Shown piece after piece: positions 6,628 through 11,628 of a DNA stretch of 24,593 bases (the first letter of the stretch is position 1; each line of letters starts with the position of its first letter). The stretch spans positions 1 to 24,593 of the forward strand of contig JAFGOA010000022.1 of the NCBI GenBank assembly GCA_016926735.1, written 5' to 3'. Source of the DNA: Promethearchaeota archaeon. Its GTDB lineage: Archaea > Asgardarchaeota > Lokiarchaeia > Sigyniarchaeales > SOKP01. The position numbers and the translations under genes were made by a program. The notes beneath the pieces were generated by a model that saw only the letters and a list, made by a program, of their open reading frames with translations, did no database searches and was not told the origin of the DNA.

Positions 6628-7500
6628 TTATAATCCTAATTTTTCGATTACGGAATTAAGGCGAACTCTATGAAATTTTAAACCAATTTCATCTGGAGAC
6701 ATTCCCATTGCTAAAGCTAACAATTCTGTAAGATAAAGTATAGGAATATTATATTCTTTTTCGAAATTTTTTGTAAGATTTCTTTGTTGCGTGTCAAATT
6801 GTTGAAAACATGCTGGACAATTTACACATATCACATCTGCGCCTGCTTTTTTAATAGCATCTAACTTTTCTTTTAATATCAGAGCACCGTATTCTTCATA
6901 TGCATTATGAACAGCAGATCCACAACATAGTGCTTCAACATCATAATTTATAACATTGGCTCCAGTTAAGGAGACTATTTCTTTTAAATTCATTGGACGC
7001 ATAGGATCATCTGATTCCATCCATTCTGAGGGGCGCATATAATGACATCCTGGATGACAAGCAATATTTAAACCAGTTAAATGTTTAGTTATTAAATTTT
7101 TAATTTCATCTGATTTGTCTTTTAATACATCAACAAAATGTTTAACATCAATTGTTCCCTTGTATTCTCTTCCAATTTTAGATAATTCAAGATTAATTCT
7201 CTCTTTTTTTGAAGAATCGTGATTTAATTGATGTTTTACTCCTCTTAATGTATTTGTACATCCATTACATAATGAAATAATATCCTTGTTCTCTTCTTCT
7301 GCTAAACATAAATTTCTTGCTCCAATAGCTAGCCAAGCATTATTATCAAAAGATTTCATACCAGTTGGATCTGGACAACAAGAAAAAGGAGCTTGTGATG
7401 TCTGTATATTTAATTTTTCAAACACTTTTCTGGATGCTGCTTCGATAAATGGAATACGGTTTCCAATAGTACAACCTTCAAACATTTTATATTCTGTCAT
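6628..7500 (-). CDS. hdrB: Heterodisulfide reductase subunit B (two CCG domains)
   Basis: GC, SCCPDP, CNGC, HPGCH, CCG and CPACFQQFD give the full non-cubane cluster ligand pattern. Directly downstream of hdrC. Confidence 0.93.
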   Translation of the reverse strand: MTEYKMFEGCTIGNRIPFIEAASRKVFEKLNIQTSQAPFSCCPDPTGMKSFDNNAWLAIGARNLCLAEEENKDIISLCNGCTNTLRGVKHQLNHDSSKKERINLELSKIGREYKGTIDVKHFVDVLKDKSDEIKNLITKHLTGLNIACHPGCHYMRPSEWMESDDPMRPMNLKEIVSLTGANVINYDVEALCCGSAVHNAYEEYGALILKEKLDAIKKAGADVICVNCPACFQQFDTQQRNLTKNFEKEYNIPILYLTELLALAMGMSPDEIGLKFHRVRLNSVIEKLGL

Positions 7501-7505
7501 ACGTA

Positions 7506-8015
7506 TTAATCCTCTTTTAATTTTTTGTCTAATCCAATATTTTTTAATAAAGTCTTTATTTCATCTACATTAGGAGATAAAACTGCGGGTAAATCTAATT
7601 GTTGCCTTCGTCTTTCAATAGCAGATTGGGAAGGAATTGCTTTAGCAGTATCAAATATAGCTTTAGCTTGGCTATAAAGAAAATCAGGGCCTTCTCCTTT
7701 AATAATACTTTCATTTTTTAAGAAAGTAAATATTTCTGTTAACTCAATATTTTGAGGGCAAAGCTCATCACACGTATCACAAACAGTACAACCCCATATT
7801 GTTAGTGAATCAGAATTGAAAATTGCTTCCTTATATCCTAAAAGAGCATTTAAGATATTTTTTCTTGGATCATATCCAGTAGTACCATAAAAATCTTTTG
7901 TTACTTTTGATACAGGACAATAATCTGTACATCGACTACATTGATAACAATATTTAATTATATCAGAACCCATATGATAATCCATAACTTGTTTTCTAAA
8001 CTCAAAATCTATCAT
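7506..8015 (-). CDS. hdrC: Heterodisulfide reductase subunit C (2x[4Fe-4S])
   Basis: CYQCSRCTDYCP and WGCTVCDTCDELCP ferredoxin motifs, an RRQQLDLP tail typical of HdrC, and a 5-nt gap to hdrB. Confidence 0.92.
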   Translation of the reverse strand: MIDFEFRKQVMDYHMGSDIIKYCYQCSRCTDYCPVSKVTKDFYGTTGYDPRKNILNALLGYKEAIFNSDSLTIWGCTVCDTCDELCPQNIELTEIFTFLKNESIIKGEGPDFLYSQAKAIFDTAKAIPSQSAIERRRQQLDLPAVLSPNVDEIKTLLKNIGLDKKLKED

Positions 8016-8070
8016 TTTTTTTTCACTTATTTGATTGATATTTTTTTTTTCATTATTTCATCTTTTTTTA

Positions 8071-8140
8071 TTGGCTATAACCCATGCAAGGTTAGTTAAG
8101 TTCAATCTATTTTTTTTATTGAACAATCATCCTAAGCCAA
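8071..8140 (-). promoter_or_regulatory. Candidate SECIS-like RNA element at the 3' end of vhuU
   Basis: Minus-strand RNA reads UUGGCU-UAGG-AUGA-UU-GUUCAAU-AAAAAAAAUAG-AUUGAAC-UUAAC-UAACC-UUGCAUG-GGUUA-U-AGCCAA. It has an outer stem UUGGCU/AGCCAA, AUGA before a perfect 7-bp stem with an A-rich loop, and a second UAACC/GGUUA hairpin. The 3' GA of a canonical core is not at the expected position. Confidence 0.5.
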
Positions 8141-8276
8141 CATTTAACTTACGTGTATAAATTTCTTTACCATCCTCATTTACAACGGTAATGTGGGCGG
8201 CACATGATAGTCAGCAATCATAACAGCGAACTACCATTTCTAAGAGATTTATTACTCCTTCTGGTATATCACTCAT
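8127..8276 (-). CDS. vhuU: Selenocysteine-containing hydrogenase subunit U (separately encoded C-terminus of the [NiFeSe] large subunit), 49 aa
   Basis: Hand translation from ATG 8276: MSDIPEGVINLLEMVVRCYDC-U(TGA 8213-8211)-LSCAAHITVVNEDGKEIYTRKLNVGLG*(TGA 8129-8127). It matches the L2 motif EMxxRxYDP[C/U]xSCxxH and starts 41 nt after vhuA, which lacks that motif. Confidence 0.92.
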
Positions 8277-8317
8277 TTATTATTTTCACTTTTTAATTTT
8301 AATTATATATATTTAAG

Positions 8318-9622
8318 TTATTTTATCCAAGGGTCTGGTAATTTTAATCCCTCTAAAGCTTTATCTTCAAATATTTGTTTTGCAACATGCATTAAAGATT
8401 TTTCTATACCTGCGATATTATGATTTGTCGCAACAAGGAGATTTAATTTTTTACAAATTCCTTGAGCATCAGACCATATATGATATAACAGTAATCCACG
8501 AGGGGCCTCTGTTACACCAATGCCTTGACCTTCTCTAGGTTCAATATCAAGAGTTTTACAATCTGGATTACATATATCCGGATCTTCAAGATATTTTTTG
8601 ATTAATTCAATTGCCTCAACGGTCTCAATTAATCTTGCCCAATGATAGGCAAAAGTATGATGAGAAATTTGGCCAACTTTATCTCTAAAAGCTTTTAACG
8701 CATCATCAGCTAATGGAGTTGCCATTTTATCAGCGGCATTTATCATAGCTAAGCAATTAGCTCTATAAATCCCTTCAGGGTATCCTGCTGGTTTATAATA
8801 CATATGAGTCGCATAAGAATGTTCTGGAATATGTTCCCCTAACGCATCAAGATAATTATGAACATTATAATCTATTTTTTTACCTTCTGGAGTTACAATA
8901 CGAATATCTCCATTATATATATCATGAATTCCATTTTTTGTCATTCCTAAATAATATGTAGGAACTACACCAACATTAGCAACAACATCCCAATAATCTT
9001 CTACAACTTTTAATCCAATCTCGACAGTTTTTTTAGTAAATTCTATCTGTTCATCAATTTCTTTTAGAAATTTATCACGAATATCTTCATCTAATGATTT
9101 TTTCATACCACCAACAATAGCAGAGATAGGATGAACTGATTTTCCACCTATGGCAGCACATAATTTCTGACCAAAATCCATCATTTTCATTGCCATGGCT
9201 CCTACCTCAGGCATTTTATTTATAACATGAACTACATTTCTTAATGCTGGATCTGCCATTGGCCCTAATAGGAAATCAGGTGCGGCTAAAGCATAAAAAT
9301 GTAGAATATGAGAACTATATTGTTTAGCATTCATTAAAAGTTGTCTTAATTTTAAAGCAGGTGTTGGTATTTTTACATTCCATGCATCTTCAACAGCTTT
9401 GGTTGGTGTTAAATGATGAGGAATTGGACAAATACCACATATTCTTGGTGTTATTCTTGGTACATGTTCACAATAACGACCTTCACAAAATTTCTCAAAA
9501 AATCTTGTAGAAGTCACATTAAATTGAACATCTTGTACTTTTCCATCATCACCTAGAGTTAATCTTAGGCCCCCATGACCTTCTAATCGAGTAACTGGTT
9601 CAACTTCTATTTCTTTTACCAT
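8318..9622 (-). CDS. vhuA: F420-non-reducing (group 3c) hydrogenase large subunit, lacking the C-terminal CxxC
   Basis: EPVTRLEGHG, RFFEKF, PRICGICPIPH (L1 motif), SHILHFY, EAPRG and LLVATNHN. It ends ...LPDPWIK with no DPCxxC motif, the VhuA-type split of MvhA. Confidence 0.93.
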   Translation of the reverse strand: MVKEIEVEPVTRLEGHGGLRLTLGDDGKVQDVQFNVTSTRFFEKFCEGRYCEHVPRITPRICGICPIPHHLTPTKAVEDAWNVKIPTPALKLRQLLMNAKQYSSHILHFYALAAPDFLLGPMADPALRNVVHVINKMPEVGAMAMKMMDFGQKLCAAIGGKSVHPISAIVGGMKKSLDEDIRDKFLKEIDEQIEFTKKTVEIGLKVVEDYWDVVANVGVVPTYYLGMTKNGIHDIYNGDIRIVTPEGKKIDYNVHNYLDALGEHIPEHSYATHMYYKPAGYPEGIYRANCLAMINAADKMATPLADDALKAFRDKVGQISHHTFAYHWARLIETVEAIELIKKYLEDPDICNPDCKTLDIEPREGQGIGVTEAPRGLLLYHIWSDAQGICKKLNLLVATNHNIAGIEKSLMHVAKQIFEDKALEGLKLPDPWIK

Positions 9623-9624
9623 TT

Positions 9625-10989
9625 TTAATTTCCTCCCTTATATTCTTTATTTGAAGCTAATGTAAATTTTTCAAAAGTACCAATATGATCTTTTACTTGA
9701 GAAAGTAATTCTTCTTTTGATATACTTACATTGAATTGTTTAAGTATTGTATCAGCAAATCTTTCTGCTTGATTTACCCCCCATTTTGTTTGTCCATAAC
9801 ATCCTGTACATGGAGCGTTAACATTTATACACATTCCACCACAACCTGCATTTGTTACTGGTCCCATACAAATATATCCTTGCTCAATAAAACAATCTTC
9901 TAAGTTTGGTAATCCTTCATAATCTCTCTTTACTCTAGTCATTGTAGATTTGCTATGTGTTATTCTAGAGCACGTATCACATACATTAGATATTTTATGA
10001 AAATCTCTATTATCTCTAAGATAATATAGTAATTTTGAAGTAATACTTTCAGCTTGAGATGGTAAATTAGGCAATGATGTAGAAACTATTCCTTTTTTTT
10101 TAATCTGTTTTAAAATATCTCCTGATAAATCAAACCCAGCCATAAGTGGCAGATTTAAATATAATGTTAAAAATTCATATAAATTTTTTTTATCACCTGA
10201 GCTCATTGAACTTAAATTATCTGTCATTGAGTTTAATTTATCGATTTTTGAAGCTACTATTTTTGCAGGACCCATACATCCTACACACGCATTACCGTTT
10301 GTAGGACATTTTATTGAGCACCCACTGCTAGTAATCGATCCAAAACATAATTGTCCTTTATCTAATAAACATCCTTCTTGATTTAAGGGACATTCATTAC
10401 AAAATGCGGATTCTTTTACAGGAAATGGTTTTTGCCCTAATAAAAATAATACAGAACTAATAATATGCTCTGGTTTAGGAGGACATCCAGACATATAAGC
10501 ATCTACTTTTATAATATTATCCAATGGAATAATATTTTTTTCAAATTCAGGAACATGCTTATCTGGAACTCTACTACTGCCATCTGCAATACTTTCTACT
10601 TCCAAAAATTTCCTTCCTGTAAGTTGTTCTAAAGTTGATTCGTTTGCTAATCCATGAACATTTCCATAACATGAACAACTACCAAAAGCTATAATAAGTT
10701 GACATTTTCTTCTCATTAATTTAGCAGCATCCACATCTTGTTTAGTTCGAAGACTTCCTTCAATAAAACCTACAAGTATTTCCCCATCTTCTCTATTTTC
10801 GAGAGATTTATATTTGAAATCAACAACACATGGCCAATAGACTATTTCCAAAGCTGGAAGGAGAGGTAACAATCCCAGATGTGCATTTAAAAGACTTTGA
10901 TGACACCCCCAACAATCAGAGCATTGATTAAATGCAACTTTAACACGAGAATCTTCGATATTATTATTATCCTCTTTATTTTTTATCAT
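9625..10989 (-). CDS. vhuG: F420-non-reducing hydrogenase small subunit, extended form
   Basis: CSDCWGC, FIEGS, AFGSCSCYG and GCPP (proximal cluster). These are followed by two copies of the 8-Cys MvhG-type C-terminal module. Ends 2 nt before vhuA. Confidence 0.9.
   Translation of the reverse strand: MIKNKEDNNNIEDSRVKVAFNQCSDCWGCHQSLLNAHLGLLPLLPALEIVYWPCVVDFKYKSLENREDGEILVGFIEGSLRTKQDVDAAKLMRRKCQLIIAFGSCSCYGNVHGLANESTLEQLTGRKFLEVESIADGSSRVPDKHVPEFEKNIIPLDNIIKVDAYMSGCPPKPEHIISSVLFLLGQKPFPVKESAFCNECPLNQEGCLLDKGQLCFGSITSSGCSIKCPTNGNACVGCMGPAKIVASKIDKLNSMTDNLSSMSSGDKKNLYEFLTLYLNLPLMAGFDLSGDILKQIKKKGIVSTSLPNLPSQAESITSKLLYYLRDNRDFHKISNVCDTCSRITHSKSTMTRVKRDYEGLPNLEDCFIEQGYICMGPVTNAGCGGMCINVNAPCTGCYGQTKWGVNQAERFADTILKQFNVSISKEELLSQVKDHIGTFEKFTLASNKEYKGGN
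9632..9636 (-). promoter_or_regulatory. Possible Shine-Dalgarno site (GGAGG) for vhuA, inside the end of vhuG
   Basis: Minus strand GGAGG-aaattaaaa-ATG with a 9-nt spacer. It could equally reflect the Gly-Gly codons of vhuG. Confidence 0.35.
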
Positions 10990-11217: not shown

Positions 11218-11628
11218 TTATTTTAACTTATTGATCATATTGTCAATAACATTGTTAAAATCTGAAAAAATAGAAATTTCTGAATAATCATTAACAGAAT
11301 ATTTTAAGTAAAATTTATCAGTTATATTTTCAAGTAAAGTCATGACTTTTTTCTTCCACTTTCTCTCAAAATTTTTTAATTTATTTATAACAATATAAAT
11401 AAAAAGGTTAGCATCCATTTCTGTAGCACCTTTTTTCTTTTTAAAAATAATATTGTAATTATTACCTTCAAAGTATTCTAATGGAGAAATTAAATTTTCA
11501 GCAAAATTAATCAAACTTGATATTAATGCACTTTTATTTGTTATTCCCACATTATTTTCTGTTTGATTATATTTTCTACATATAATCGGTATACTCTCTA
11601 TTAAAATTCCTACTTCTTCTACTAACAT
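11218..11628 (-). CDS. Hypothetical protein, longin-like domain (Asgard type)
   Basis: 136 aa with a beta-beta-alpha-beta-beta-beta-alpha-alpha pattern: VGIL..IPIICRKY, helix SALISSLINFAENL, strands, helix LLENITDKFYLKY and terminal FSDFNNVIDNMI. Confidence 0.55.
   Translation of the reverse strand: MLVEEVGILIESIPIICRKYNQTENNVGITNKSALISSLINFAENLISPLEYFEGNNYNIIFKKKKGATEMDANLFIYIVINKLKNFERKWKKKVMTLLENITDKFYLKYSVNDYSEISIFSDFNNVIDNMINKLK

Follow-up and report, generated by a model that had tools for sequence, protein, structure and literature searches.

A Sec-type VhuU peptide, very probably decoded via a lokiSECIS, as the missing piece of a split hydrogenase large subunit in an Asgard archaeon

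Contig JAFGOA010000022.1 of the Promethearchaeota archaeon assembly GCA_016926735.1 (positions 1 to 24,593; this whole 24,593-nucleotide (nt) stretch is called the window here) carries a hydrogenase operon in which a short frame with an in-frame TGA, vhuU, lies between vhuA and an hdrC-like gene. The host is a Lokiarchaeia/Promethearchaeia-type Asgard archaeon. In this study, vhuU was found to be, with high confidence, a genuine selenocysteine (Sec)-encoding gene that is decoded via a lokiSECIS, a Sec insertion sequence (SECIS) element at its 3′ end. Judged from homology, a cytoplasmic Mvh/Vhu-type [NiFeSe] hydrogenase, which we take to be group 3c-like in the hydrogenase classification, would have VhuU as the detached C-terminal piece of its large subunit. 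Sec-vhuU genes and their lokiSECIS are already known in Lokiarchaeota, as parts of Mariotti et al. 2016 (PMC4989117) and Huang et al. 2024 (PMC11227280) describe.

The vhuU coding sequence occupies 8276..8127 of the minus strand, which also carries the whole hydrogenase operon. It consists of 49 sense codons (8276..8130) followed by a terminal TGA at 8129..8127, and its codon 22 is a TGA at 8213..8211, where the plus-strand letters 8211-8213 are tca. With the TGA read as U, the minus-strand translation is MSDIPEGVINLLEMVVRCYDC-U-LSCAAHITVVNEDGKEIYTRKLNVGLG-stop, a peptide that begins MSDIPEG, bears the motif D-C-U-L-S-C-A-A-H and ends NVGLG. A sequence-only reading of the window had claimed such a frame, 49 codons long and with the 22nd being TGA, in the apparent gap between vhuA and hdrC, and the translation agrees with it. 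The frame is missing from the list of open reading frames (ORFs) made with translation table 11. It starts 41 nt past the vhuA stop and ends 111 nt ahead of the hdrC-like ORF. A Shine-Dalgarno-like AGTGA (8286..8290, minus strand) stands 13 nt ahead of the vhuU ATG, and similar purine-rich motifs are found at -11 to -14 ahead of the operon-internal genes vhuA, hdrC and hdrB, which fits vhuU being a cistron with its own translation start. The peptide matched the NCBIfam VhuU model NF041786 with an E value of 9.5e-16, and a Pfam scan of the 50-residue read-through peptide gave no match.

The upstream gene, vhuA (8318..9622, minus strand; 434 amino acids (aa); PF00374), encodes a [NiFe] hydrogenase large subunit that contains the L1 motif RICGICPIPHH and ends in ...LPDPWIK without a CxxC motif, just as the sequence-only reading had described (L1 RICGIC present, L2 lacking). 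VhuA aligned to model positions 3-417 of the 418 in the NCBIfam VhuA family NF041785. Its best match among solved structures was 9sfi_g (418 aa, 421 bits), followed by the fused MvhA 5odc_F (473 aa), of which it covers residues 3-416; the closest solved relatives, 9sfi_g, 5odc_F and 9sw2_F, are all Mvh/Vhu proteins. VhuU aligned to residues 425-451 of 5odc_F, 424-449 of 9sw2_F and 425-451 of 7t2r_D. In these three chains, codon 22 lines up with the first Cys of DPCLSC(A/S)TH, the first Ni-ligand position of a DPCxxCxxH-type motif; the TGA had been predicted at exactly this position, and in 5odc_F it falls opposite the first Cys of DPCLSCATH. VhuU also aligned to the separate 27-aa chain 9sfi_M, which has X at the Sec column. 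Thus, VhuA (3-416) and VhuU (425-451) together tile a normal large subunit on 5odc_F and place the UGA on a Ni-ligand position. No second VhuA homologue was found by tblastn in the assembly (3.88 Mb, 99.3% complete, 238 contigs). Further hallmarks of the Mvh/Vhu type are the RxCGxCxxxH form of the L1 motif, the adjacent hdrC and hdrB genes, and HdrA-VhuD pairs on two other contigs of the genome (C231 and C50).

The vhuU frame was matched in 104 of the 121 genomes of the order, this genome included, at E ≤ 0.01, and every match with E < 1e-21 contained one in-frame TGA and extended to query residue 48 or 49. Among 30 fetched relatives, the Sec column was TGA in all, within an invariant DC*LSCAAHITVV and with VGLG at the end. 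Of 20 more remote stretches within the order, 16 had TGA and four had TGT/TGC in this column. Two of these Cys forms are small split ORFs, and the other two belong to long frames, of 481 and 536 aa, that are fused. Such an alignment of TGA with Cys codons reads as the classical signature of a selenoprotein. The 27 codons past the TGA, compared with the sequence of the window, showed a mean non-synonymous rate (dN) of 0.055 and a mean synonymous rate (dS) of 1.125 (ratio 0.049), with 256 synonymous against 81 non-synonymous codon differences; 21 of the 26 distinct sequences were used, and five with saturated dS were excluded. Both the alignment of the TGA with TGA or Cys codons in relatives and the conservation of the frame past it, here seen as purifying selection, had been named by the sequence-only reading as consequences to look for.

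A further set comprised 80 loci from named public genomes, most of them labelled Promethearchaeota or Promethearchaeia. Sec-TGA vhuU was present in 68 (66 recognised by pattern, plus L167 and L170 by eye), a contig edge intervened in two, and vhuU was absent from ten. In the latter loci (L113, L114, L124, L126, L128, L130, L139, L145, L150 and L160), a vhuA whose product is 83-90% identical to VhuA here leads directly to an hdrC-like start, and both vhuU and a SECIS are absent. The metagenome-assembled genomes AMARA_5S, Yap150.bin8.212 and DZ1B.199 each have, in addition, a vhuA locus outside this vhuU-less set. One VhuU might be shared by two VhuA paralogues, or the second vhuA copy might be inactive.

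The gene had also been said to escape standard gene callers, which is borne out by a collection of 5.8 billion proteins that yielded only 20 relatives. These are 26-86 aa long; the Sec column holds W in ten, and the remaining ten are genuine Cys forms. Of the ten W records (P0002-P0009, P0011 and P0019), nine show a further W where the terminal stop falls, whereas P0019 ends on a non-TGA stop, and the C-terminal extensions differ from record to record. The W records likely arose from a genetic code with TGA as Trp being picked for short contigs.

The lokiSECIS core was located at 8096..8130 on the minus strand by a pattern scan, covariation and RNAalifold. In the direction of transcription, it consists of AUGA (8130..8127), which includes the stop codon, UUGUUCAAU, an 11-nt apical loop AAAAAAAAUAG (8117..8107), AUUGAACUU, and AA (8097..8096). 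The stem has nine positions, 8126..8118 with 8106..8098, and the loop is A-rich and ends in AG. The core begins 81 nt downstream of the Sec codon. Across the 30 relatives, six of the nine stem pairs change on both sides, 94.8% of the cells are paired, and RNAalifold recovered eight of the nine pairs; for the whole counted structure, the observed covariation score was reached in none of 500 shuffles. The core reads ATGA in 27 relatives and TTGA in three, and some relatives have a 1-nt insertion after the AUGA or loops of 13 nt. A SECIS-like element was present in 64 of the 66 parsed named loci and overlapped the stop in 61 of these 64, and the two bases 3′ of the stem were AA in 36 and GA in 28. 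By its sequence, the core would adopt a kink-turn, in which a bulge (GAU) is followed by tandem G.A and A.A pairs.

In the relevant parts of Mariotti et al. 2016 (PMC4989117), a lokiSECIS is described as an AUGA directly ahead of a 9-base pair (bp) stem, with an 11-nt loop that opens on five mainly A positions and closes on a G, most often with an A before it; AA in place of GA after the stem is given as VhuU-specific, and the AUGA of VhuU.1 is said to double as the UGA stop. The model as outlined by Huang et al. 2024 (PMC11227280) allows a stem of 7-15 bp with at most two mismatches and a loop of 8-20 nt. The vhuU SECIS shows the listed lokiSECIS features and agrees with the latter model (AUGA/AA core, stem, and a loop starting with adenines). 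Additional pattern matches in the genome, on contigs C50 (minus strand), C62, C86 and C110, look like chance hits at a genomic GC content of 26%. A separate lokiSECIS-like pattern with 8 of 9 pairs and a terminal GA was observed on contig C109 near 12889 (minus strand; locus L062). The frame before it ends in ...DPGC and two consecutive TGAs and has no recognisable selenoprotein family.

The Sec machinery, for which the sequence-only reading had suggested searching the genome, was found to comprise tRNA-Sec, SepSecS, an archaeal SelB, a PSTK-like kinase and SelD. SepSecS scored 470.9 bits, above its cut-off. SelD (contig C151, L060:588-1625) itself contains one in-frame TGA, within HGUSCKLGP. 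The 472-aa SelB-like ORF includes the archaeal SelB domain III (PF21440, aSelB_III) above threshold, and the PSTK-like kinase has a KTI12 match above threshold; both are the best hits. Searches of the whole genome with Rfam at the gathering threshold and with ARAGORN missed tRNA-Sec. A weak tRNA-Sec match (26.9 bits), in which intron sequence had been taken for the acceptor stem, was present 240 nt upstream of SepSecS, and its comparison with intron-less genes of related genera led to a three-exon tRNA-Sec at C7:183-340 (L061), with exons at 183-199, 234-291 and 323-337 and an encoded CCA. The D-arm intron measures 34 nt and the T-loop intron 31 nt. ARAGORN calls the spliced sequence tRNA-SeC(tca), with pairing of 9/9 in the acceptor, 7/7 in the D, 6/6 in the anticodon and 4/4 in the T stem, and with a G discriminator. 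In related genera, the gene is intron-less in loci L078-L087 and shows the same intron-like pattern in L064-L077. Multi-intron tRNAs are documented in Asgard archaea. A T-loop intron in the tRNA-Sec of Lokiarchaeota is described in a portion of Mariotti et al. 2016 (PMC4989117); the 34-nt D-arm intron is an addition to it.

Two HdrA-VhuD pairs (L058:1248-3648 on C231 and L059:1225-3668 on C50; VhuD matching PF02662) contain 2+2 and 1+2 in-frame TGAs, respectively. Downstream of vhuD, each pair has a single lokiSECIS, and the AUGA of the one on C50 again forms the stop codon. That HdrA-VhuD pairs share one SECIS is stated in the corresponding section of Mariotti et al. 2016 (PMC4989117).

According to the favoured explanation, vhuU would be translated as its own cistron in a vhuG-vhuA-vhuU-hdrC-hdrB operon, and the UGA at codon 22 would be decoded as Sec by Sec-tRNA(Sec) and archaeal SelB under the direction of the eukaryote-like kink-turn lokiSECIS. 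A minimal-distance rule, by which UGAs near the SECIS stay stops, is proposed in the sections of Mariotti et al. 2016 (PMC4989117) that deal with the element. Since the AUGA core holds the terminal UGA, this codon would escape recoding by lying too near, or inside, the element and would end translation. By homology to the solved Mvh/Vhu structures, Sec22 and Cys25 of VhuU may coordinate the Ni-Fe site as its C-terminal ligand pair, with Cys62 and Cys65 in the RICGIC motif of VhuA as the other two ligands.

The 21 residues past His28 are conserved at the protein level and align to the C-terminal extension of FrhA (3zfs_A), while the solved VhuU chain (PDB 9sfi) has 27 residues and ends one residue past the His. 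By the title of Sorgenfrei et al. 1993, the VhuU of Methanococcus voltae is processed at a defined site. The genome has a gene for a HycI-family endopeptidase (PF01750 at 38.3-41 bits, above threshold; TIGR00072 at 64.1 bits, cut-off 47.45). The encoded enzyme probably removes the 21 residues, and this cleavage would take place after Ni insertion and leave a peptide of ~28 residues on VhuA.

Several observations count against a Sec-VhuU of this kind. The curated NCBIfam cut-offs were missed by VhuU (57.3 against 70 bits), VhuA (471.7 against 800) and VhuG (225.7 against 450). The models NF041786, NF041785 and that for VhuG appear to be calibrated on Methanococcales; for VhuU and VhuA, NF041786 and NF041785 are the best families, yet the genes are not filed as members of those equivalogs. 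Likewise, SelB (231.5 against 242.25 bits for the bacterial selB model) and PSTK (140 against 290.5 bits) remained under their equivalog cut-offs. In the SECIS, two U-U mismatches occupy the base of the stem, so that seven of the nine positions pair here. An Rfam scan of 7400-8400 with E values up to 10 returned no SECIS family, only chance small nucleolar RNA-like and small RNA-like matches. The single-sequence fold of the 3′ region was no stabler than shuffles (z = -0.53), and covariation alone supports the SECIS structure. The motif itself deviates, being D-C-U instead of the canonical D-P-U. The residue before Sec (codon 21, 8214-8216, minus strand) is Cys in 30 of 30 close loci, and the Cys forms likewise read D-C-C. 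More distant members of the order show C in 11 cases, P in two and F in three, and the solved Mvh/Vhu relatives have Pro ahead of the Sec/Cys position (D-P-C/X). A Cys-Sec redox pair at D-C-U is a matter of speculation. Finally, as 25 differences to contigs from other samples were not shown, those samples do not strictly prove that the codon at 8211-8213 is identical.

Were the TGA a true stop, the locus would be a decayed large-subunit C-terminus, a pseudogene with a functionless 21-codon product. Table 11 indeed reads a stop and omits the frame from its ORF list, and related loci without vhuU between vhuA and hdrC exist (10 of 80). The purifying selection past the TGA already contradicts this view, as do the Ni-ligand Cys and the His beyond it, which are invariant in 30 of 30 loci, and VhuA is the sole large subunit of the assembly with a full hyp gene set around it. 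We consider decay extremely improbable. An error in the metagenome-assembled genome, with TGA standing for TGT or TGC, is similarly far-fetched. It could draw on the fragmentation of the assembly into 238 contigs, but the TGA recurs in 30 of 30 loci of other genomes and in 68 of the 80 named loci. Three further studies (X2, X3 and X4) supply contigs across 8211-8213, with differences listed at 8196 and 8217 and none at the codon, the 25 undisplayed differences aside. This comparison between samples used contigs only, and the X16 contigs lack coverage of 8172-8600.

The UGA might instead be read as Cys or Trp, by a near-cognate or suppressor tRNA or through genome-wide reassignment, in which case the product would be no selenoprotein. 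Public gene calls of relatives do give W at the codon, and Cys forms of the peptide exist in the order. Against reassignment, TGA is the terminator of 179 of the 1406 open frames of at least 300 codons in this genome, and of vhuU itself. The W records run past the terminal TGA into non-conserved sequence, which points to an artefact of the code chosen by the gene caller. The genome encodes a UCA-anticodon tRNA of 9/4 fold alongside SepSecS and archaeal SelB, the SECIS covaries, and other in-frame TGAs occur at Cys-like columns of the known selenoprotein families HdrA, VhuD and SelD. Such a reading is accordingly judged quite improbable, and a Sec-VhuU decoded via its lokiSECIS remains the explanation that we hold with confidence. 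The two RNA runs of the source study contained next to no matching words and say nothing on expression.

Beyond the core, the SECIS lies within a three-helix junction (8070..8141, minus strand) made of helices P1, P2 (the SECIS stem) and P3. P1 pairs 8141..8135, the codons for Val-Gly-Leu, with 8076..8070, and seven to eight pairs form in each of the 29 relatives compared (L038, which contains N's, was left out). Two of its positions covary (GGC/GCC with GGU/ACC, and GUU/AAC with GUA/UAC), and the 5′ strands form on average 7.00 Watson-Crick pairs with their own partners versus 5.78 with the partners of sequences differing in the 5′ strand. P3 is a small GC hairpin (8094..8089 with 8083..8078) between the core AA and the 3′ strand of P1; 79.3% of it is paired with little variation, its CC/GG pairs are invariant, and loci L043-L046 share a paired C/G insertion. 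UGG_CCA-type lower-stem pairs in frhA, which correspond to P1 here, are mentioned in the portion of Huang et al. 2024 (PMC11227280) concerned with these genes. A literature search, which for Mariotti 2016 and Huang 2024 covered passages of running text, found nothing on a three-way junction at a SECIS.

It is tempting, though rather doubtful, to regard this conserved junction as a switch that turns recoding off as the terminal UGA enters the A site. A ribosome at the Sec UGA, 81 nt upstream, would meet the folded element, and a ribosome at the last codons would melt P1 and the AUGA core, so that recoding would be off at the terminal UGA. If true, the element would be a built-in device by which one UGA means Sec and the next UGA means stop, and it may bear on the origin of the internal loop and helix 1 in eukaryotic SECIS elements.

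Compared with known systems, the locus is closest to the VhuU.1 of Lokiarchaeota, with which it shares a ~50-aa peptide, a single Sec, a lokiSECIS with AA and an AUGA that serves as the stop. The HdrA-VhuD pairs with one SECIS and the 31-nt T-loop intron of tRNA-Sec are shared as well. Unlike the Lokiarchaeota descriptions, this genome has two U-U mismatches at the stem base and the second, 34-nt tRNA-Sec intron; nothing essential differs. The report of Sec-VhuU in Lokiarchaeota that the sequence-only reading had cited corresponds to the passages of Mariotti et al. 2016 (PMC4989117) on VhuU.1, which list VhuU, VhuD, HdrA, PrxL and SPS as selenoproteins of the group. In the sections of Huang et al. 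2024 (PMC11227280) on selenoprotein distribution, the FrhA/MvhA/VhuU family is reported in 68.3% of 227 Sec-using Asgard genomes, with AUGA_AA cores in frhA genes of Lokiarchaeia, and a part of Valentin-Alvarado et al. 2024 describes a ~50-aa VhuU in other Asgard lineages.

With the VhuA/VhuU of Methanococcus (9sfi chains g and M), the proteins share the same split point, a separate small Sec peptide carrying the C-terminal Ni ligands, and an association with heterodisulfide-reductase genes. In contrast to the Methanococcus Vhu system, the motif here is D-C-U and not D-P-(Sec), and the gene order is vhuGAU-hdrCB, that of Methanococcus being vhuDGAUB. The SECIS differs too, being a eukaryote-like kink-turn here and a GAA_A bulge in euryarchaea by the descriptions in the above papers. 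The fused Cys-type MvhA proteins (5odc_F, 9sw2_F and 7t2r_D) are covered over the whole chain, with gap-free alignment of the L1 and C-terminal motifs; unlike VhuA plus VhuU, they are single polypeptides of 472-475 aa with Cys in place of Sec. The periplasmic [NiFeSe] hydrogenases of sulfate reducers (5jsu_B and 2wpn_B) also have Sec for the same terminal Ni-ligand Cys, but their large subunits are fused and belong to another group, and the match to VhuU is weak (E = 1.3). Their SECIS is bacterial and lies within the coding region. The junction, the Cys ahead of Sec and the vhuU-less loci may be undescribed so far.

The remaining genes of the operon are those of a small subunit and of two heterodisulfide reductase-like proteins. 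vhuG (9625..10989, minus strand) encodes a 454-aa hydrogenase small subunit (PF01058; VhuG model NF045875), whose residues 16-203 and 334-446 align to MvhG (5odc_E, 299 aa). Between these segments lies a Cys-rich insert of ~130 aa (roughly 204-333) that is not found in Mvh/Vhu small subunits. Directly 3′ of the SECIS is the hdrC-like gene (7506..8015, minus strand; TIGR03290 at 76.1 bits, under the cut-off; Fer4 families), followed by the hdrB-like gene (6628..7500, minus strand; PF02754 CCG domains; TIGR03288 at 277.1 bits, under the cut-off of 345). Genes for HypF, HypE, HypD and HypC flank the hydrogenase operon. A 136-aa ORF (11218-11628, minus strand) between the operon and hypC had no Pfam or NCBIfam match.

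The vhuU instance itself adds no new principle; it is another instance of the eukaryote-like SECIS elements of Asgard archaea on which current ideas about the origin of the eukaryotic Sec signal are based. For this organism, the VhuU peptide represents half of the active site of the sole [NiFe] large subunit in the assembly. Public protein collections omit VhuU or mistranslate its Sec as Trp, and metabolic reconstructions that miss vhuU would call the hydrogenase truncated.

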